From a virus (taxonomy: Duplodnaviria > Heunggongvirae > Uroviricota > Caudoviricetes), in the IMG/VR virus record IMGVR_UViG_3300000976_000008, positions 47,223-111,222 of that record: a DNA stretch of 64,000 nucleotides. One strand, 5' to 3'. Below are positions 5,264 to 63,610 of this stretch, one piece after another. The position numbers and the translations under genes are program-made. The notes below the pieces were generated by a model, which was not told the origin of the DNA, ran no database searches, and saw only the letters and a program-made list of their open reading frames with translations. The first letter of the stretch is position 1, and each line of letters begins with the position of its first letter.

Positions 5264-5775
5264 GGACCAATAGCCCAAGGTGGAACCGGTGGCAAAACAC
5301 CAACATCGCCGGGAAAAGTGCCCTCTTCAATATATGGGCATTTAGGAGCAGGCTCATGTAGCCGCTCATCGAAATCAGGTGATGGGCAATATCCCATCCC
5401 TATAGTATCGCAAGCATCATAGCTTTCTTCGACTGGCAATTCTTCGTTAGCCAGACCCCTGAGAATAGAATAGTAATCAGGATATGAATTTGGCGGGCAA
5501 CCCGCACTAATACCAGGCAATACAAACCATTTCTGCCTAGTGTTCCCTCTATTGAAATTATTACCAAGTTTCACATATGATCCTGGTATAGCATTCAGTG
5601 CAGTAACCAGGTCGATAATAGCACTCCCACATCCAGATTCAGCTAAGTAACTGGATAATGCAGTAGAAGACAATGCGGAAGTAGGTTCACATCCTGGAAC
5701 CAATACTTTACCACCCGCCAAAACTTCTAATTGATGTTGCACGTAGATCTGAGCGTGAGACATTACCAGTTCCAA
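5260..5775 (-). CDS. Hypothetical Cys/Pro-rich protein
   Basis: 171-aa ORF with no recognised motif. Confidence 0.35.
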   Translation of the reverse strand: MELVMSHAQIYVQHQLEVLAGGKVLVPGCEPTSALSSTALSSYLAESGCGSAIIDLVTALNAIPGSYVKLGNNFNRGNTRQKWFVLPGISAGCPPNSYPDYYSILRGLANEELPVEESYDACDTIGMGYCPSPDFDERLHEPAPKCPYIEEGTFPGDVGVLPPVPPWAIGP

Positions 5776-6548
5776 ACGCCTAATGGTTCACCTAATTTAA
5801 TTGCCTTATCGATTATTTCTTCTCTATCTTTAGTCCCTTCTTGGACCAAGTCAGAACCTCCATAATCGATAGTGCTACCATCCGGTGTTGGCATCCCGTG
5901 AATCTTTCTACGAGCATTACCAACGGCAATTCTCGCCTCGGCGAACATCATGTCGTAAGTTAGTTGTCTGGCTTGAGGACTGCGGAAGTGGTTCACAACT
6001 GGCGTGTACAAGACGACTACGGGAAAAGCCCCCTTAGGGGTCGGATATAATCGGATCAATTGGTCCTTAGCAGACAATGAATCACCATACCCACTACCTT
6101 CACCCTCGCCAATTACTTCCCAATGTCCTTCAGTGCCAAGAATCTTCTGAGAGAATTTTCTGTAAGCTTGTAATAAATGATAATCGGTCAGGACATTCTG
6201 AATACCTGAAATATTACCAATATTGAACAAGAAAGACTCAGCACCAAAGACGTCGTCAATTCTCGTTGTTACAGGGTCCCAATTTACCTCTTGAATCCAA
6301 TAGGCATCCTTAGGCAAAGGATAAGTCGATTGGAGAGGCACAGTATAGAAAGTGGCGAGTTTCTGTTCTCGTGGAAAGTATCCAGCTATAAAATCGCCAG
6401 CTACTCTGAACATCACCTCCCATTGATCTTCAGTGATTTCTATTTCTGTATTAGGATGTCCCAACTTAGATAAGACATATTTTTTCATCGGGTCACTGCG
6501 GACCTTTAGAACAGAAGGTAAATCTGCAGGTGCTAATATAGCCATCAA
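5763..6548 (-). CDS. Hypothetical protein (structural module)
   Basis: 261-aa ORF that overlaps both neighbours in an operon-like way. Confidence 0.4.
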   Translation of the reverse strand: MMAILAPADLPSVLKVRSDPMKKYVLSKLGHPNTEIEITEDQWEVMFRVAGDFIAGYFPREQKLATFYTVPLQSTYPLPKDAYWIQEVNWDPVTTRIDDVFGAESFLFNIGNISGIQNVLTDYHLLQAYRKFSQKILGTEGHWEVIGEGEGSGYGDSLSAKDQLIRLYPTPKGAFPVVVLYTPVVNHFRSPQARQLTYDMMFAEARIAVGNARRKIHGMPTPDGSTIDYGGSDLVQEGTKDREEIIDKAIKLGEPLGVWNW

Positions 6549-14374: not shown

Positions 14375-14848
14375 TCAATTGACAAATCTTGCCGTGCAGT
14401 GCCATCCCGATCCAGATGGATGGCATGCCTTAGCAATCATTCGCTTCTGCCCATAGTAGCAGACATTTCTCAGTGCATCGGCTGCAGATCTCGTCGAAAA
14501 ACCAACACCTTCGAATTGACCAGGTGGTGGAGATCCAATGTGGCCAGTTCGTCGATTCATAGCTTGAATTCGTGCTGATTCATGCACCGAAACCGTAGAT
14601 GTTGTTCGAGTCGTCACAGTATGTCGCACATGTCGCACATGTCGCACATGTCGCTGTTGACGAACTTGACGAAACTGACGGCATTGTGGCTGTCGAACTT
14701 GACGAAACTGCGGCTGACGAAAACGTGGCTGTCGGAATTGGCGTGTTTGACACGGATTACACATACCGCGTTGCCCGCCTCTTCGACCAGCTTCTACCTC
14801 AACACTCATACAACAGAGTACCAAAGCAATCATCAAAACAAAACGCAT
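14375..14848 (-). CDS. Secreted Arg/Gln-rich tandem-repeat protein
   Basis: Signal peptide MRFVLMIALVLCCMSVEVEA, then FRQPRFRQPQFRQVRQPQCRQFRQVRQQRHVRHVRHVRH. The underlying DNA carries tandem repeats gtcgcacat x3 and ttgacgaa-type units. Confidence 0.4.
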   Translation of the reverse strand: MRFVLMIALVLCCMSVEVEAGRRGGQRGMCNPCQTRQFRQPRFRQPQFRQVRQPQCRQFRQVRQQRHVRHVRHVRHTVTTRTTSTVSVHESARIQAMNRRTGHIGSPPPGQFEGVGFSTRSAADALRNVCYYGQKRMIAKACHPSGSGWHCTARFVN

Positions 14849-46002: not shown

Positions 46003-46081
46003 AGCAAACCTTACATAGCAGTGGCCCGGTTAACCGGGCCACTGCGTCTCATAATAAGAGAAGTCGCTTCACTCCAATCTC

Positions 46082-47236
46082 TTAATCTTCGTCTTCAAGT
46101 TGCTCAAGCAGCGAAGCAATCTCGTCGGATTCTCCTTCGTCATCATCGCCAGATTCTTCGGCTAACTTCTCAGCGTCAGTTTTACCAGCTTCTTCTGCTT
46201 CTGGCTCTTCTTCAAGAGGAGTTTCATCTGCTAGAGAATCTCCTTCATCATCGGCAGCTGCTTTCTCAAGCTGATCTACCACATCGACGTCATCGTCTTC
46301 TTCAGCTTCGGTTTCTGCCTTCTTCTTTTCTTCAGCCTTCTTCTTTGCAGCTTTAGCCTTTGCTTCAGCCTTAGCTTCAGCTTTAGCCTTCTTCTCAGCA
46401 TCATCCTTCGTAGCAGTTTCATCCTCGTCGAAACCACCACTTTCATCTTCATCATCGCCATCGACCATCACACTGAAGAGTTTCTTAACCTTCACTGGGT
46501 CTGGCGTTTCGAGTTTGCTCCATAGATTGTGACGAAGCTTGAGAAGAGCAGAAAGTGCTTTCTTATTTGCAGCACCTTCGGAATCCTTCACCATTGGTTG
46601 ACCTTCGCCCCCATTAGCCAAGAATTTACTGGTCTTGTAACTGTTTTGTCTGCCTTGGCGGGAAACTTCCAGTTGGAACAAGAATCCATTATTCTCATCG
46701 AAGAAGACACCGTGTGCTTCTGGCTCTTCCGGATCTCCAGCATCTTCACGAAGAAGAGCAGCGGTCCACTTGTCAAAACAAGTCTTTGGTGCGTTATACC
46801 ATTTGACCTTACCTCGCAATTCTTCTGGATTTCCCTTCCAATTAGTGAAGTAGATGTTGGTAGCATAATACGTAGTCGGCATCCATGTTCGAATGATCTT
46901 GCTACGCACATCTTGGTCGCTTTTGTTCTCCTTCAAGAGATCAAAGCCAAATTGGCAAATTGGACATTCTTCACCATTCCACACGCGGGGACATGGGTGA
47001 GGTCTATCGTTTACCCAGTGGTTAGCGTGAGCGATGAAGAACTGATCCATGTCCTTCTCTACTTCACCACTCTTGAGAATATCACCATTCATCAAAGGCG
47101 GAAGAACAAAGAATCGATACTTGATTTCTTTATTGTCGTCTTTAGCCTTCGCTGGTTTGAACTCATCTGGGTCAGTGAATTTACCAGATTGTGATTGTTT
47201 CAGTTTCTTGCGAATTGCTTCTACATCGTAAGCCAT
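46082..47236 (-). CDS. gp32-type single-stranded DNA-binding protein (SSB)
   Basis: YRFFVLPP...FFIAHANHW...PCPRVWNGEECPICQ matches T4 gp32 RFLP...NHGF plus Cys-x-Cys-xx-Cys zinc ligands. KVKWYNAPKTCFDKW matches KVFKYRFGKKIWDKI. The C-terminal tail is long and acidic. Confidence 0.9.
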   Translation of the reverse strand: MAYDVEAIRKKLKQSQSGKFTDPDEFKPAKAKDDNKEIKYRFFVLPPLMNGDILKSGEVEKDMDQFFIAHANHWVNDRPHPCPRVWNGEECPICQFGFDLLKENKSDQDVRSKIIRTWMPTTYYATNIYFTNWKGNPEELRGKVKWYNAPKTCFDKWTAALLREDAGDPEEPEAHGVFFDENNGFLFQLEVSRQGRQNSYKTSKFLANGGEGQPMVKDSEGAANKKALSALLKLRHNLWSKLETPDPVKVKKLFSVMVDGDDEDESGGFDEDETATKDDAEKKAKAEAKAEAKAKAAKKKAEEKKKAETEAEEDDDVDVVDQLEKAAADDEGDSLADETPLEEEPEAEEAGKTDAEKLAEESGDDDEGESDEIASLLEQLEDED

Positions 47237-47253
47237 TGTCGTATGTTCCTAAG

Positions 47254-47310
47254 CGTTGTTGAACGAATTTTGTTTAACGAATTTGTTGAACGAATTTGTT
47301 GAACGAATGT
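47254..47310 (-). promoter_or_regulatory. Tandem 13-nt repeats in the 5' leader of the gp32-like gene, a candidate translational operator
   Basis: The mRNA-sense sequence AUUCGUUCAACAA occurs four times, in a leader almost free of G, immediately upstream of the start codon at 47236. Confidence 0.45.
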
Positions 47311-47313
47311 TGT

Positions 47314-47877
47314 TTAAGTTGTTTTGTCAAATTCTTGTCGTTTACTGGCTGAAAGAGATCTACCTAAATCGGCTTTCATCTCCAATGCCTTGACTAGATG
47401 GTAAACCTTCCCAGTATGCATTTGCACTTTAGCAAGATTTTCTTCCAGTCTGATCAATTGGGAATCTTCTTCGACAACGACTTTGACTTGTTCGCCAGTA
47501 AGATTGACTCCCTCATCTTTCAATTTCTGTTTTATTTCACGTATCGCCTTTCCTTTCCGAATCTTAACAGCTTTTTCAAGAACTGCCACATTCATCCTAA
47601 GTTCAGAGTAAACCGCTGACCAGAACATATATTGAGTAGGAAGCTCTTCTAGCTGATACTCAACCAACTCCCTATCAAGAGCAAGTCCTGGCAACAAATC
47701 AAGTGTGATTGTCTTCGCTTTCTTGGTCTCAGGATCTTTCGTCCGAAGAGTAACTTTGAAAGTGAAAAGATCTGTACCCAAAAGTTCTTCAGGAATATTT
47801 TCCTCAGCCCAAAAGGGGAGGTCTAAATCTTTCTTTGGAACTTTATTCACCAGGTGGCTCCCAAGCATCTTTAACAA
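47314..47877 (-). CDS. Hypothetical protein at the position of T4 gene 59
   Basis: 187-aa ORF directly upstream of the gp32-like gene. I see no recognisable similarity to gp59. Confidence 0.35.
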   Translation of the reverse strand: MLKMLGSHLVNKVPKKDLDLPFWAEENIPEELLGTDLFTFKVTLRTKDPETKKAKTITLDLLPGLALDRELVEYQLEELPTQYMFWSAVYSELRMNVAVLEKAVKIRKGKAIREIKQKLKDEGVNLTGEQVKVVVEEDSQLIRLEENLAKVQMHTGKVYHLVKALEMKADLGRSLSASKRQEFDKTT

Positions 47878-48127
47878 ACCCAGTGGGTTTGGGCTTTTTA
47901 TTCAATACAGGCACTTTTTTAGCACCTGCCATAGCATTATTCGAATCAGGCGACATAGAAAAAGACCCCCGATCAAAAGTTGTTTCTTCAATATGTTCGA
48001 CTGGTTCAGTTTCCTCTGAAAGCATATTTCTCTTACTGGTCCGAAGCTTCAGACGTTTGATTCTCTTCAACTTCTTGGACGCTCGCCTTCTTTCCGCCTT
48101 CAGTTGTTTTTGCCTTTTTGCCGACAT
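47843..48127 (-). CDS. Small highly basic protein
   Basis: 94-aa ORF with a Lys/Arg-rich N-terminus. Confidence 0.3.
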   Translation of the reverse strand: MSAKRQKQLKAERRRASKKLKRIKRLKLRTSKRNMLSEETEPVEHIEETTFDRGSFSMSPDSNNAMAGAKKVPVLNKKPKPTGFVKDAWEPPGE

Positions 48128-49367
48128 GCGTCACGCCACTTTCTCGATAAACTCTAATTGTTTTCCATTTCTTCCATTTTCGACCCATACCCACTTTCAA
48201 CGGAAATGCAGGATTATCATCTAAAACGCCTTCAAAAGGATACAACATTATAGATGAAACTTTGTCAATTACCTTTTCCAGCAATTTCTCATCGGGTGGA
48301 CACGCCATAACAAGCGAGTCATGGATCTCAGCCACAATATATTGTGGATATATATCCCAAATGTGTCTTATACATAATTGCATAGCATGGGCCACAGAAC
48401 CTTGCATAGCACCATTCAACACAGCGAGAGCATTTTTAGCAAAAGCGAGTCGGAATCTGCGGTGCAACAAAGTTTCTAAAAATGCACCATCTTTGTTCAG
48501 TTTCTGCTTACATTGCCTAATCCATTTACCCAAACCAGGGTAGATGAAAGTCAAAGCATCACTGCTGAAGTCCATCGAGTTAATCGATTTCAACAAATAC
48601 GTCTTGCATTCATCTCTATCGATTTTCTCTTCAGATTCACTATTCAACTCTTCCATCATGAGTTGATATGGATCTGAAATTTCAAAAGCTCTCTGGAGTT
48701 GAGTATCACCAGATAGTAAGGATGCAACCCTAATATCAGCACAGATCCAGTCGAAATGGAGAAGTACCGCAGTATCACTCATACCAGTTGGTCGGATATT
48801 TGCTGGTTCAGAATATCCCTGAATGTTAAAACCAGTAGTTTTACTTCTCCCAGAAAAAGTTTTCTGTGACCAAATGGGTTTCCTATGAGAATAATTTATA
48901 AGAAGACCATGTCTCTCTAGATCCGCATAAACAAAAGCTGCACGAGCTAGAATCTTTTGATACTCGCAGAATGGTCTTTTTTCCATCCGCAGTATAGCAC
49001 CTCTAATAAAGGCATGGTCCTCTTGCCTAGATAGTAGAGTTTTGACATCGCCAAGGTGAATATCATAGACATCATAATCATGTTCATCCGGCAGATCAAA
49101 TGCCTTAATATGCGACATGAAGTCATTGATAACAATAGGCTTTGATTTCTTAGCTGCAGAAATCATCAATTTGCGAATAATCTTGATATTTTTAAAGATT
49201 TTCGCTAATGGTTTATTCTCACCAGATCTGTGAAATTCAACCAATATGATATCACCACCATCTTTAACACCAGCACAACGCGGTAATCCCGAATTGCGGT
49301 CAAACAGAGTAAAGATGTAAAGTGTTTCGTCCATGGTCTCGAATAACAAAACACAGCCGAGAACCAA
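48033..49367 (-). CDS. Minimal family-A DNA polymerase-like protein (palm/fingers only)
   Basis: LLHFDWICADIRV resembles motif A. RDECKTYLLKSINSMDFSS resembles motif B. IVAEIHDSLV resembles motif C (HDE). At 444 aa it has no exonuclease domain. Confidence 0.5.
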   Translation of the reverse strand: MVLGCVLLFETMDETLYIFTLFDRNSGLPRCAGVKDGGDIILVEFHRSGENKPLAKIFKNIKIIRKLMISAAKKSKPIVINDFMSHIKAFDLPDEHDYDVYDIHLGDVKTLLSRQEDHAFIRGAILRMEKRPFCEYQKILARAAFVYADLERHGLLINYSHRKPIWSQKTFSGRSKTTGFNIQGYSEPANIRPTGMSDTAVLLHFDWICADIRVASLLSGDTQLQRAFEISDPYQLMMEELNSESEEKIDRDECKTYLLKSINSMDFSSDALTFIYPGLGKWIRQCKQKLNKDGAFLETLLHRRFRLAFAKNALAVLNGAMQGSVAHAMQLCIRHIWDIYPQYIVAEIHDSLVMACPPDEKLLEKVIDKVSSIMLYPFEGVLDDNPAFPLKVGMGRKWKKWKTIRVYRESGVTHVGKKAKTTEGGKKASVQEVEENQTSEASDQ

Positions 49368-57639: not shown

Positions 57640-58566
57640 CTATGGCTGGCTACCTCTCTGAGCATATTTCAAAAGTCTAATGATACAAGAACCAACATCC
57701 ATGCACCAATCCCATTGTGCAGAACTACCTACACTAAATATACCACGATTCTCTACTGCATCTAATTTAGGAATATCTCCAAGAGGAATAGCACCTTCTA
57801 TAGATGTGCCATCAAGAATCTCGAATTTATCCATAAAGCTCATAAAATAAATCCCAGGATTTGGGATCTCATTGTGGCAATAGAAAAGATATCTATTTGG
57901 TGCAACGTTGGTGACCTTATAAAAATCAAACAATTGATCGGTCACCAAAGTCTGATTTGAGCCTTCAAAATCCAGACTCTCTGTTTCCATATGCAAATAA
58001 TGGATCGTCCTAGCTTTTAGAGAATGCTCAGTATTCATCAACCCAAGAAGAGCATCTAATGGGATGGTGCTCACACACTGATCAAAATCTTCTCTGACAC
58101 CATCTCTAACAAAATGATGATCGCCCACCTCAGTTATTAATCCTTTTCCGGATTCAGCTTTGAGTTCTTCTATAAATGTTTGTTGTAGAGATCCATATAA
58201 ATTATTGGCACGGATATCATAAACCCTCAAATCCATCCTACTCTTCATATATGGGACAGTTTGAGATGGTACATCCATCCCAAACAATTTATGTGCCCAA
58301 TCTTTGCAAAGGCCATCGTCCCATTGGCGGACCAATCCACCCCCAACAGACCATGCCAATTTATATTCGAATTTCTGCAAGCTGCGACTCTTCATTAGAT
58401 CTAGAATAAATTGATCTAATGTTTCGTCGCAGATTATGAAATTATCATCTAAGGCTGGATTAAAGCTGAAAAAACGACTCCTGTAGAATGGAATTACCTT
58501 CCATGAGTCGCCTAGAATAATTCTGGCCAGTAGGGCTACAATCCCCGATCCGAAAATCACATTCAT
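57640..58566 (-). CDS. FAD/NAD(P)-binding Rossmann-fold protein
   Basis: The N-terminal GxGxxA dinucleotide-binding motif is IFGSGIVALLA. Confidence 0.4.
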   Translation of the reverse strand: MNVIFGSGIVALLARIILGDSWKVIPFYRSRFFSFNPALDDNFIICDETLDQFILDLMKSRSLQKFEYKLAWSVGGGLVRQWDDGLCKDWAHKLFGMDVPSQTVPYMKSRMDLRVYDIRANNLYGSLQQTFIEELKAESGKGLITEVGDHHFVRDGVREDFDQCVSTIPLDALLGLMNTEHSLKARTIHYLHMETESLDFEGSNQTLVTDQLFDFYKVTNVAPNRYLFYCHNEIPNPGIYFMSFMDKFEILDGTSIEGAIPLGDIPKLDAVENRGIFSVGSSAQWDWCMDVGSCIIRLLKYAQRGSQP

Positions 58567-59465
58567 TAATCATCGTCTTCTTCGGGAGACATTCCATCCG
58601 CCGCTTCAACATTTGATTTTGGTTTCGTGACCGTCAGAGGACTTTCCTCTGGCTTTTCTGTAACTTCTTCTCCATCATCCGAAGCCTTGGCTTCGTCTTT
58701 CTTAGGAGCTTTCTTGGCGGTTTTCTTTTTCTTCTTCGGCTTCTTTTTAGGCTCGTCCTTGGCCTCTTCGTCCTTGACTACCTCGTCCTTGACTACCTCG
58801 CCCTTGACTTCCTCGTCCTTGACTTCCTCGTCCTTGATTACCTCTTCTTTAGGTTCTTCATTGACTTCCTCGCTCTTGACCTCTTCGACTACTTCGTCCT
58901 TGATTTCCTCGCTCTTAGACTCTTCATTATCAGATTTTTCGCCCTCAGGCTCATCTTTCTTAGGTTCCTTAGGTTCGCCATCTTCGCCAACCTCCTTCTT
59001 CTCTGCATCAGGATCTAGCTCAGAGTCGTCTGTCTTCTTCTCATCTGGGTTTTCTGGGTTTTCATTTGTTCCAGAACCTTTCAACCTGTCTGCGACAGTT
59101 GATCCATCACCCAAATCAATTGATTCATCTGGGTCTTGCAAAAGAGGATCTAATTCATGCTCTTCAATCCGCCCTTCCTCAAGAGGATTCATGAACACAT
59201 CTTGTGGAGGTTCCCATTCTGGATTGCAATTAACGCAAGACCATTCAATCACAGGAAATGGCGGTTCAGGAAGCGATACGATAATATCAACTCCTTGACC
59301 GCAAGATGGGCAAATAGTCGAAAGCTTGGTCGGTCGGACCATGACGCCTTCAGCATTTTGCATAGCAGAATTGACAGGTTCAGAATCAAACTCATATGGT
59401 CTCGCCGTAGTCTCTTGACCATCCATGAGAACATCAACGAGAGAAAATGGGTTGTACTCAGTCAT
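58566..59465 (-). CDS. Zinc-ribbon protein with a long acidic Lys/Glu/Asp/Val tandem-repeat tail
   Basis: CPSCGQG...CVNCNPEWE is followed by EEVKDEEVKGEVVKDEVVKDEE repeats. The DNA carries tandem repeats of about 15 nt at 58770-58860. Confidence 0.45.
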   Translation of the reverse strand: MTEYNPFSLVDVLMDGQETTARPYEFDSEPVNSAMQNAEGVMVRPTKLSTICPSCGQGVDIIVSLPEPPFPVIEWSCVNCNPEWEPPQDVFMNPLEEGRIEEHELDPLLQDPDESIDLGDGSTVADRLKGSGTNENPENPDEKKTDDSELDPDAEKKEVGEDGEPKEPKKDEPEGEKSDNEESKSEEIKDEVVEEVKSEEVNEEPKEEVIKDEEVKDEEVKGEVVKDEVVKDEEAKDEPKKKPKKKKKTAKKAPKKDEAKASDDGEEVTEKPEESPLTVTKPKSNVEAADGMSPEEDDD

Positions 59466-60698: not shown

Positions 60699-60891
60699 GA
60701 CGATCAGCATAATCACTTGCAAGAGCTGCAAGATGTGGATTAGTAAAGACTCTTTCCGGTTCCAACGAGTCTGCATCCAAGATTGTTTTGGCGATTTCGC
60801 CTGTGGGCACGACATCACGCATCATCAAATAGAGGAAAGTTACTAGCTTACTTTTGCTCTTTATGTCGTTCTTTGTGGAGGAGTTTGACAA
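60673..60891 (-). CDS. Hypothetical small protein
   Basis: 72-aa ORF. Confidence 0.25.
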   Translation of the reverse strand: MSNSSTKNDIKSKSKLVTFLYLMMRDVVPTGEIAKTILDADSLEPERVFTNPHLAALASDYADRLIDEVDEV

Positions 60892-63610
60892 TTGTTTGAT
60901 TCCTTCTCATCGTAAAAGTGCCTCTCATCTCATCATAATCAACCCACATCTCAATCCCTGTACCAACTAATAGAGATTCAGGATTTTGCAAAGCTAATTC
61001 ATTGTTGAAAATGAGAACTAAGGCTGTTTGAACACCGTCACTAACAAATAACCTAGCATACTCTTTGTTATTCTTAGATACGGCGAATTCTAAATCAGTG
61101 ATCACAACTTCAAGTTTAACTCCGTCATACTGACCACCACGCTTCGCAGCATCAATATCACAATTACCCTGTGTGAGATAAAGATCAAGTGGTGAATGCA
61201 AATAGTAACCAAGATATTGCTTCTCAAAAGCCAGAGTCTCTTCTAAAGTGAATTCTTTGTCAGAGTAAAGACTGATCACATTATCTCTACTGTCATTTGG
61301 TTTTGGCTTCCAATTCTTGATCTTCGCAGGGATTTTGCGGCGATTTGGATATTGCTTCTTATACTCTGCCTCTTGCCGCTGCCTCTCCTCTTCAATTGTT
61401 GTTTCGTTCCAACCATCTTTTTCAACCAGTTTGGCCCTGATTTCTCTTCGAAGTTGAGTTATATCCTTGCCACTACAGTATTTATATTCATACCATTTCC
61501 AAGTCGCATAAATGTTCTCATGTCCTTCAAGAACAGTGAATGCACCAAGTTTGATAAACCTTTCAAGAACGGTTTTGCTCTTACCGCCCTTCTTTTCAAT
61601 AAAATCATCAATATCAGTAAAATCGCCACGCCCAGCAAAACTTTCGGCTGCACTTTCACCAATTCCTTTAATGCCGATCATCCCCTGATTCACAACATCA
61701 TTTGTAACAGTAAAGTCTGTCGTCAAATTGAAAATGTTGATAGTTCCAAAGACAACTGTATCAGCTGGCTTTTCAGGATTGTAAGATCCACTATATGTAA
61801 CATGATCAGTCGGTTTCCATTCTTCAGATCTAGCAATGCCCATATATCTTACTAGTTTATCCGAATGACAATCGCTCATGACAGCGGCCCACCACTCTGG
61901 AGCAAAGTGAGCTTTCAACCATAAACATCTCTGAGCAACTAAGCAATAAGAAACAGCGTGAGAACGATTGAACGCATAGCGACCAAATGTTTCCATCTTG
62001 GTCCACCAGTTCTCTGATTCTTTCTGTCCTAAAACTCTAGATGCACCAACAATCCAATGCTCTCTAATGGGTTTCAACTTATGAACCCATTTCTTAGCAA
62101 CAGCTTTCCTAGCCTCTTGTGCTTGTGGTGCGGTAAAACCAGCTACTCGTTGCCAAATTGCCTGCAATTGTTCCTGATAGACAATTACACCATAGGTATC
62201 CTTCAAAACATCCAATATCTTAGGATGTAATCGATTCTTCCAAGAATCCGATCCACCATCACGATTCTCTACAGCTTCCGGTATAGAAGCCATCGGTCCT
62301 GGGTGCCCCATAGCATTGAAAAGCATCAAATCTTCAAAGTTTCTAACCCCATTCGCCAAAATGCTCTTCGCCAGATCAGTATCAAATTGGAAAATACCAT
62401 CTGTTTTCTGTTCATTAGCAAGACGTAATGCATCTTCATCATTGAGACTAATATAATGCTTGTTGCCCTCTGAATCGAAAAAATGACCAGCCCTATTCAA
62501 ATTAGGATTAATATCGTCCCATCCAGTCATAGCTGGTGGTAGTTCCTGACCGTGTTCAGATTCAGATTCTTTTCTCTCACCAAACGTGATACCTCTATTT
62601 TGCTCAATAAGCCTGCAACACTCGAAGATATATTTAAGCGTTTTGAGGCCAAGAATATCCCACTTAATATAACCAAATTTTGAAAGCTGAGTGTTCCTAC
62701 CCTCGGACCACATGCTTACCCAATAACCTTTGTTGTTACTCTTGGCTAAAGGAATATTTCCGAACAAAGTACGATCAGCGATAATGAGGGCACCAGCGTG
62801 CATACCCATGTTTCGCACTCGACCAATGATCTGAACAGCATAATCTATAACATCTGGATATTTAGCAGTAAACGAGGCAAGTTGCTCATATTCAGCTATC
62901 AGCTTACCGATAGTCGGGCCATCTGTAGCTTCTGATTGACAATTTGGACATCTGACTTCATTGTGAGAAGTACCACATTCTTTATCTTCGCCATCGGTTT
63001 TGATGCGACCTTTACAATTTGAATAACCACCATCTTTCAAATCATCAACATCATCCGGCAATTTAGTTGTAAGCTCATAGGCTTCAGCCTTATCAACCAT
63101 ACCAGTGGCAACACAAACATCGATCACAGATGATTTGAATTTATATGTCTGCCACGTTCCGACAGAACAAACAGGCCCATACCCATCAGTTATGCCCATC
63201 CCATACTTCTCAGCAGCATAGGTTTTAATTGGGTCGCGAGCTTCAGGAAGACAGTCGAGATCAATATCCGGCATATCCGGATCTTTTACAAAGTCTGGCG
63301 GAACAACTCCGTTCCTTTCTCGATATTTAACAACTTCAGCAGCTTTGACAGTACAAAGAATCTCATCATCTCTACCACTAATCGGGTCACCTTCGGCCAT
63401 ACCAAGCAACCAAGGCAAGACCAAACTATTGGGATTTGATCCAAATCGCTTCTTATCGTTGTAGAGATTCAGCCAATATGTAGTAGCACCTTGCTTCTCG
63501 ATCTCCTTAAATTCAAACTTCAAGCGTTTTGCGTAAGTTTCATCTAAAGATCGACCGTCAAGCTCACCATTAGCAAGCTCTTTTAATTCTTCCCAAGTGA
63601 CGCTAGCCAT
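60848..63610 (-). CDS. DnaE-family (Pol III alpha-type, C-family) DNA polymerase catalytic core lacking the N-terminal PHP domain
   Basis: Aligned to E. coli DnaE: [25 protein letters not shown] ~ [38 protein letters not shown] ~ [26 protein letters not shown] ~ PDFDVDFC (catalytic Asp pair); [10 protein letters not shown] ~ [20 protein letters not shown] ~ Gx[20 protein letters not shown] ~ KMDFLGLRTLT. The ORF begins at the equivalent of about DnaE residue 290. Confidence 0.8.
   Translation of the reverse strand: [920 protein letters not shown]

Follow-up and report, generated by a model that had tools for sequence, protein, structure and literature searches.

The leader of the gp32-family single-stranded DNA-binding protein (SSB) gene of a huge phage (the source record measures 408 kb) consists for the most part of four tandem 13-nt units, which end at the ribosome-binding site, are predicted to leave the sense RNA open, and have counterparts of unrelated sequence at the same place in the gp32 leaders of other lineages. 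Based on this anatomy and on the layout shared with phage T4, we tentatively interpret the array as an RNA operator, or the bulk of one, for autogenous translational control of the SSB, i.e. as a variant of the T4 gene 32 operator; this interpretation appears quite plausible, though somewhat short of probable. The analysis covered a stretch of 64 kb, referred to below as the window.

The repeat array, its genes and its predicted structure

The 77-nt gap at 47237–47313, whose sense strand is the minus strand, separates a UvsY-like gene from the gp32-family SSB gene. The relevant features are:

46018–46045, no strand assigned: perfect 28-nt palindrome with a 14-bp stem (GCAGTGGCCCGGTT/AACCGGGCCACTGC), 37 nt after the gp32 stop; inverted repeat I3
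46082–47236, minus strand: gp32-family SSB gene, 384 aa (Pfam PF08804, 4e-11; PHROG 224 SSB)
47237–47255, minus strand: ribosome-binding segment CGCTTAGGAACATACGACA, with AGGA at 47250–47247 (−14 to −11) and a 10-nt spacer
47256–47308, minus strand: four tandem 13-nt units ATTCGTTCAACAA, three of them exact copies (TRF score 93)
47296–47308, 47283–47295, 47269–47282 (variant) and 47256–47268, minus strand: the individual units as read from the sequence
47309–47313, minus strand: partial fifth unit ACAAC, directly after the upstream TAA stop (47316–47314); TRF extends the array to 47314
47314–47877, minus strand: UvsY-like recombination-mediator gene (PHROG 231, weak match)

Read on the minus strand after the TAA stop, the gap runs ACAAC-ATTCGTTCAACAA-ATTCGTTCAACAA-ATTCGTTAAACAAA-ATTCGTTCAACAA-CGCTTAGGAACATACGACA-ATG, the variant unit ATTCGTTAAACAAA (47269–47282) carrying one substitution and an extra A. 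Tandem Repeats Finder (TRF) assigns a period of 13, 4.4 copies, 91% matches and a score of 93, the highest of all non-coding arrays in the window. The initial annotation had described four tandem 13-nt units in the leader of a gp32 homolog, which agrees with the TRF result and with the PF08804 match downstream; its statement that the leader consists almost entirely of repeat was slightly generous, as the array including the partial unit occupies 58 of the 77 nt and the final 19 nt are ribosome-binding site and spacer. The array ends 18–19 nt 5′ of the ATG and adjoins the AGGA ribosome-binding site. The three occurrences of the exact 13-mer in the 64 kb all lie in the array, and the unit is thus no generic dispersed repeat there. 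When up to two mismatches are allowed, three other scattered matches are added, and the total of seven compares with a mean of 3.7 and a largest value of 8 in shuffled sequences. A motif search for AAATTCG, CAAAnTTCG and TTCGTTMAAC likewise found no enrichment elsewhere in the window, on which ground a dispersed promoter or regulator motif was rejected. Rejected as well was an upstream open reading frame or N-terminal extension, since the array contains no sense-strand ATG, GTG or TTG and an in-frame TAG is positioned 18 nt 5′ of the ATG. A promoter scan detected no sigma-70-like promoter on the sense strand of the gap, and no intrinsic terminator was called on its minus strand, the sole call being antisense with 3 G-C pairs. 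The interval from the array to the ribosome-binding site is too short for a promoter, so that any gp32 mRNA translatable from that site carries at least part of the array. A Logan contig, which represents a second assembly, is base-for-base identical over 21 kb and therefore supplies no copy-number variation.

The assignment of the SSB is based on a Pfam profile search (PF08804, 43.7 bits versus a cutoff of 26.8) and on the residues His73, Cys82, Cys91 and Cys94, which form a zinc-binding His/Cys3 motif and are invariant in 38 homologs. An hhalign comparison with T4 gp32 (E = 1.4e-4) places Cys82 and the CPxCQ segment onto Cys77, Cys87 and Cys90 of T4. The N-terminus, AIRKKLKQS, is basic (5 K/R in the first 25 residues) and the C-terminal third strongly acidic (55 D/E in 129 residues); both termini are left unaligned by hhalign, so that their likeness to those of T4 gp32 is one of composition only. 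A PDB profile search with the SSB family returned no match at E <= 0.01. Within the C-terminal region, 12- and 18-nt coding repeats at 46348–46408 produce an alternating run of K, A and E (KKAKAEAKAEAKAKAAKKKAEEKKKAE), which is flanked by acidic stretches and, unusually, places a basic island within the acidic tail.

All genes around the array are located on the minus strand and belong to a replication/recombination module that encodes RecA-like, DnaB, Cpn10, PolA, 5′-3′ exonuclease and Pol III alpha proteins. The order uvsY-like, gp32, exonuclease is kept in all relatives, and orthologs of the UvsY-like gene in two of them (L168, L169) weakly match PF11056 (UvsY). A 7-bp hairpin (47875–47893; sense-strand sequence CAAACCC-ACT-GGGTTTG) was noticed where the UvsY-like gene is predicted to begin; an ATG some 9 nt further downstream than the listed TTG may be the true start. 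The palindrome at 46018–46045 is not followed by a U-run and probably marks the 3′ end of the gp32 transcript as a terminator or stabiliser. Further observations in the window concern a PolA-type polymerase fragment (48033–49367, 444 aa), whose match to the PF00476 profile is confined to the C-terminal portion, and a 920-aa Pol III alpha-like protein (60848–63610), which, with Cpn10, DnaB, RecA-like and a T4 gp15-like tail protein also encoded, make up a replication toolkit unusual for a phage. Two coding repeats were recorded in addition: a 15-nt tandem repeat of 6.2 copies at 58752–58844 (TRF score 130–144), which lies in frame inside the open reading frame 58566–59465 (minus strand, without Pfam match) and thus encodes a repeated pentapeptide, and a perfect 9-nt repeat of 3.8 copies (ATGTCGCAC) at 14621–14654 inside the open reading frame 14375–14848 (minus strand), adjoined by degenerate 9- and 15-nt repeats at 14658–14731.

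The initial annotation had also called the leader G-poor and unstructured, and both properties were recovered. Eight of its 77 nt are G (10%, versus about 23% across this strand), 42% are A, eight ACA motifs are present, and the GC content of the array is 29–33% compared to 41% for the window; the UUAAA motif occurs just once, within the variant unit. The predicted minimum free energy (MFE) for 106 nt around the leader is −8.1 kcal/mol (z = +0.37 versus shuffles). The strand-wide mean for 70-nt windows is −13.1 kcal/mol (sd 4.2); those over the leader reach −2.6 to −5.8 kcal/mol and rank 27–400 of 12,786, i.e. among the least structured 0.2–3% on this strand, which makes the leader very open, if not uniquely so. 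Strong structure, which would have spoken against the annotation, is thus not predicted for the sense RNA. Over the 77 nt the predicted folding energy amounts to −5.6 kcal/mol for the sense leader and −21.9 kcal/mol for the antisense. According to these models only the sense strand lacks structure. In the antisense, the unit comes close to self-complementarity by way of G-U pairs, which correspond to C-A mismatches in the sense RNA. A permissive Rfam search (E <= 10) gave only chance-level matches, none relevant to the leader, and MFE folding, a method blind to pseudoknots, predicted no stable element 5′ of the array. On the antisense side, a scan flagged as terminator-like a hairpin of 18 pairs, many of them A-U and G-U (47269–47307, plus strand, −20 kcal/mol). 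This predicted hairpin could matter if antisense transcription occurs there; antisense transcription has been reported for T4 gene 32.

Leaders of relatives and of other gp32 lineages

Neither blastn nor tblastn matched DNA or proteins of the window to cultured phages, which leaves it without an annotated relative, the exact repeat pattern had no match in IMG/VR and is absent from every relative found, and a metagenome scan added no closer relative. Metagenomic homologs are at most 60% identical overall and 66–69% in the core. The four relatives nearest to the window in gene order and protein identity, and some remoter ones as well, possess a common leader of another type, composed of CCAAAG, a 6-bp hairpin, the box CAAACTYCGATGTTA, a (CAA)n tract and TTAGGAAC, followed by the ATG. 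This element was located as follows:

L147: 2930–2960
L148: 2933–2960
L150: 2940–2965
L168: 1438–1465
L149: 1–25
also in L023, L016 and L017

Pairing in the hairpin holds for 100% of cells, all five inner pairs show changes on both sides, and the covariation score is 0.97 versus 0.38 in shuffles, the structure having been drawn from the same sequences, which inflates the scores. In L017 it is followed by a T-run and looks terminator-like. Hairpin and box recall the T4 layout of a structured element plus an open stretch. In the window, the array occupies the place of the hairpin and box. The 3′ end of the window leader, CAACAACGCTTAGGAACA, aligns locally with CAACAACAATTAGGAACA of L150, a score reached by none of 500 shuffles, and on this evidence the ribosome-binding segment and the last CAACAA are judged homologous to the leaders of L148 and L150. 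Only for this 3′ end, CAACAA..TTAGGAACA, is homology between the window and its relatives considered solid from the alignments. The 13-mer may also, with marginal support, be an amplified copy of the relatives' conserved box AAACTYCGATGTTAAC; in the comparison with L149, 22 of 500 shuffles scored as high.

Unrelated short tandem arrays were found at the same place in several lineages, originally among 47 non-redundant IMG/VR loci and again among loci added later:

among the 47 loci: TGAAAM, 6 copies
among the 47 loci: TAGAACCA, 3.2 copies
among the 47 loci: AGCACAG, 3 copies
among the 47 loci: CAAGAAAG, 3.2 copies
among the 47 loci: AAATTCG, 3.4 copies
later loci: TGAATGTY, 5.1 copies filling a 57-nt gap (L171)
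later loci: AAAGTTA, 4 copies, then AAAAAG, 3.8 copies
later loci: a 16-nt unit, 4 copies

Three separately fetched lineages carry arrays (L171 with TGAATGTY in five copies, L163 and L147). For a controlled survey, the set with 10-kb flanks was reduced to 46 lineages, genes were called by a crude greedy open reading frame procedure, and TRF arrays were intersected with every intergenic region of 25 nt or more; the controls represent the ±10 kb replication neighbourhood, capsid and highly expressed structural genes being outside the sample. The surveyed lineages are related to each other, and their arrays are mutually unalignable. Arrays scoring at least 30 are present in 8 of 33 gp32 leaders versus 14 of 290 other intergenic regions (p = 5.8e-4), those with at least three copies in 6 of 33 versus 2 of 290 (Fisher p = 1.8e-5), and those ending at most 25 nt from the start codon in 7 of 33 versus 8 of 266 other leaders (p = 3.6e-4). 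Both control arrays with at least three copies turned out to be artefacts, one being a coding (TSG)n repeat missed by the gene calls and the other the leader of a uvsY-like/gp32 bicistron with genes 2 nt apart. Compared to intergenic regions of the same contigs, the excess in gp32 leaders is 8-fold per nucleotide and up to 30-fold per region. As to conservation in relatives, the exact repeat is absent, but short arrays by the ribosome-binding site are strongly enriched in the gp32 leaders of the clade.

The strong arrays end 4–22 nt before the ATG, almost all abutting the ribosome-binding site; most of them are A-rich, and in each a base required for pairing is absent or almost so. Less structure than in other leaders is predicted for the gp32 initiation regions that carry an array (median −4.65 versus −9.3 kcal/mol, p = 0.012) but not for gp32 leaders without one. 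Among 56 non-redundant leaders, the gap is below 25 nt in 14, and 25 are longer but have no array; the feature is frequent, not universal, in gp32 leaders. In lineages with a tiny uvsY-gp32 gap no array was found upstream of the uvsY-like gene except in L116. The RecA/UvsX-like gene of L116 (3245–5467) encodes 740 aa with an apparent intein-like insertion, and an overlapping or adjacent open reading frame (5392–5802) ends in (TSG)6, encoded by ACATCAGGA in 6.4 copies. In one sub-clade the leader grows from 11 to 55 nt via duplication of AAAGTTA, AAATTCG and AAAAAGG units. A relation between array period and an SSB site size of about 7 nt was dismissed, the periods ranging from 4 to 16 nt and being too loose for such a claim.

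T4 gp32 is known to repress its own translation by binding to an operator that consists of a 5′ pseudoknot and more than 40 nt of unstructured A+U-rich RNA (PMC535899; PMC3014915). This stretch contains UUAAA/UAAA repeats, overlaps the ribosome-binding site and has been footprinted (PMC535899, PMC3014915). Both parts are needed, the pseudoknot being essential for repression (PMC535899); RB69 resembles T4, and RB49 has neither pseudoknot nor A+U-rich stretch (PMC3014915). As a positive control, the T4 leader was read from the genome (...CAACTGTTAATTAAATTAAATTAAAAAGGAAATAAAAATG), and the survey pipeline calls AATTA in 3.4 copies in the operator, with its end 12 nt from the ATG. Of the twelve diverse T4-like phages from culture that were sampled, eight have leaders of at least 25 nt, and in four of these (ST0, AnYang, Vibrio PG216 and Campylobacter F368) arrays end 11–15 nt before the ATG. 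In the KVP40-like Vibrio phage PG216 (L179, OR538032.1), ACAAT/ATACT in 7.8 copies (190–244) takes up a 55-nt gap and ends 13 nt before the ATG, which makes this phage a tractable cultured system for the array-operator idea.

A candidate operator and competing explanations

In the proposed scenario, the leader would be transcribed within a uvsY-like/gp32 mRNA, and its four non-self-complementary, G-poor units would provide about 60–75 nt of open single-stranded RNA up to the AGGA. As long as single-stranded DNA (ssDNA) is available, the SSB would be titrated away and the open leader translated well. Once free SSB exceeds ssDNA, it would cooperatively coat the leader, cover the ribosome-binding site and thereby switch off its own synthesis. 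The binding-site size of T4 gp32 is about 7 nt; with the same size, the leader would hold roughly 8–11 monomers. The specificity for gp32 leaders, the unrelated units and the sense-only openness at a fixed position point to selection on a sequence-independent property of the RNA. Such selection is consistent with a protein that binds single strands cooperatively, without sequence specificity, and acts on the mRNA of its own gene, and the T4-like autogenous operator is for this reason ranked first among the readings, at a confidence just below an even chance. In its favour, the SSB retains the His/Cys3 zinc site and, as judged by composition, a basic N-terminus and an acidic tail, the parts on which cooperative binding of T4 gp32 relies. 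Against it stand several findings. A pseudoknot or other nucleation structure, essential in T4 (PMC535899), was neither predicted nor matched; the exact repeat is in no relative, the closest ones having the covarying hairpin and box instead; and the gap is below 25 nt in 14 of 56 lineages, so that leader-based control is not universal. Moreover, the openness of the leader is not unique in the window, crude gene calls underlie the enrichment statistics, and a pure translation enhancer would be expected to have the same anatomy. As a pseudoknot was not found, we do not file the array as a member of the T4 operator family and call it a variant. The candidate T4-like autoregulatory operator of the initial annotation thus remains an analogy, which is partly supported: it fits the layout, the openness and the arrays of T4 and T4-like phages, and departs from T4 in that no 5′ pseudoknot was found.

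The same anatomy might serve translation only, and this explanation is the main rival, to be taken seriously even if we consider it rather unlikely. In that case the array would enhance translation or serve as a standby site for ribosomes, an open landing pad rich in A and C, containing ACA motifs and possibly S1-dependent, that boosts initiation at a weak 4-nt ribosome-binding site for a protein needed stoichiometrically and in bulk, with no feedback by the SSB. ACA motifs just 5′ of the Shine-Dalgarno sequence raise translation additively, dppA having four (PMC3879156), and cooperation with the Shine-Dalgarno sequence is known for A/U-rich enhancers (PMC2176067). The eight ACA motifs in 77 nt, the 42% A, the open leader and the ribosome-binding site of just AGGA with its long 10-nt spacer are in line with this function. 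However, ACA is absent from most other arrays, such as TGAAAC, AAATTCG, CAAGAAAG and TGAATGTY, and the arrays are specific to gp32 leaders within the same genomes, as judged in the ±10 kb replication neighbourhood with capsid genes outside. Enhancer and operator are mutually compatible, the T4 operator being an efficient initiation region as well. Another role of the RNA, namely RNase E-type processing that frees a stable gp32 mRNA, or a target for a RegA-like repressor, an antisense or a small RNA, is quite improbable. Its precedent is the T4 gene 32 mRNA, which is processed by RNase E at −71 and yields an unusually stable message (PMC3014915); the palindrome after gp32 would fit a stabilised monocistronic mRNA, and a long terminator-like hairpin is predicted for the antisense of the array. 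That hairpin contains 3 G-C pairs only, no cleavage site or partner was identified, and the lack of relation between the units of different lineages speaks against a conserved partner that recognises a specific sequence.

Could the array simply be a functionless product of replication slippage in a tolerant spacer? The fast turnover of leader length and repeat content among relatives (from 11 to 55 nt within the sub-clade), the one unit already diverged and the absence of the array from all relatives are what neutral slippage would leave behind. We nevertheless regard it as improbable in view of the excess in gp32 leaders (8-fold per nucleotide, up to 30-fold per region), the consistent end 4–22 nt before the ATG, the sense-specific openness and the same layout in the functional T4 operator. 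Least credible of all, and in our estimate very improbable, is an element acting at the DNA level, such as direct repeats for a transcription factor, iterons or the unwinding element of an origin, or tandem promoters. Intergenic direct repeats are typical of such sites, the array is AT-rich relative to the window (29–33% versus 41% GC), and T4 has a replication origin at uvsY. The 13-bp period and the 6–8-bp periods of the relatives are, however, out of helical phase; a sense sigma-70-like promoter is missing from the gap, as is room for one between array and ribosome-binding site; the motif is missing from other promoter regions in the 64 kb; folding is strongly strand-asymmetric; and units differ wholly between lineages that share neighbouring proteins. 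A replication origin in particular was rejected as unsupported, the cumulative GC skew having no turn at the array.

Extending the operator interpretation beyond the window, one may speculate that gp32-leader arrays in general are convergently evolved, sequence-independent operators that offer the SSB an open RNA lattice without a nucleating pseudoknot, their copy number being an evolvable dial of the free-SSB set-point. This generalisation, to which we attach a rather low probability, would explain why unrelated arrays precede this gene from T4-like to 400-kb phages. The autoregulation of gp32 is a textbook case, which is experimentally known only for T4 and RB69, and a 2010 review stated the need to study it in diverse phages. 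If the proposal is true, the control logic of free SSB versus ssDNA, with an open leader as its read-out, extends to very distant gp32 homologs of huge uncultured phages, and its essential feature is a repeat-built unstructured lattice by the ribosome-binding site rather than a pseudoknot or a particular sequence. The family-wide enrichment would provide a simple sequence signature for predicting operators, along with natural variants of copy number and unit. In annotation, gp32-leader arrays could be flagged as probable regulatory RNA and not as junk repeats.

Relation to known leader elements

The closest counterpart is the gene 32 operator of T4 (and of T2 and RB69), likewise situated in the leader of a gp32 SSB gene and likewise composed of a long unstructured, repeat-built stretch up to the ribosome-binding site. 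The geometries are similar, AATTA in 3.4 copies ending 12 nt before the ATG in T4 and the 13-mer in 4.4 copies ending 18 nt before it in the window. Unlike in T4, no 5′ pseudoknot was detected in the window by Rfam and MFE folding, the latter blind to pseudoknots. The unit comprises 13 nt and is A/C-rich, whereas that of T4 comprises 5 nt of A and U only; repeated elements are thus present in the window (the 13-mer, four times), with the T4-type UUAAA occurring just once. The SSB itself and T4 gp32 are related by very distant homology (hhalign E = 1.4e-4, no tblastn match in cultured phages), and the upstream neighbour is uvsY-like in the window and gene 59/segG in T4. With Vibrio phage PG216 (KVP40-like) and other T4-like genera the array shares the property of filling most of the gap and stopping before the ribosome-binding site, but the unit sequences differ. 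To our knowledge, autoregulation has not been tested on the array leaders of KVP40-like or other T4-like phages.

Two further systems are comparable in part. ACA-motif and A/U-rich translational enhancers, among them those of yifK and dppA and S1-dependent ones, also present multiple ACA motifs in A-rich open RNA 5′ of the Shine-Dalgarno sequence (PMC3879156, PMC2176067); they are, in contrast, not tandem arrays, are not tied to a single gene family and are silenced by a small RNA instead of their own product. The proposed mode of repression has a parallel in filamentous phages. Their gene V protein, a cooperative ssDNA binder, represses translation of the gene II mRNA, and the unstructured leader there is coated once the ssDNA is saturated, as would be the case for the proposed operator. 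Gene V protein belongs to another protein family, its target is another gene, and no tandem array is involved.
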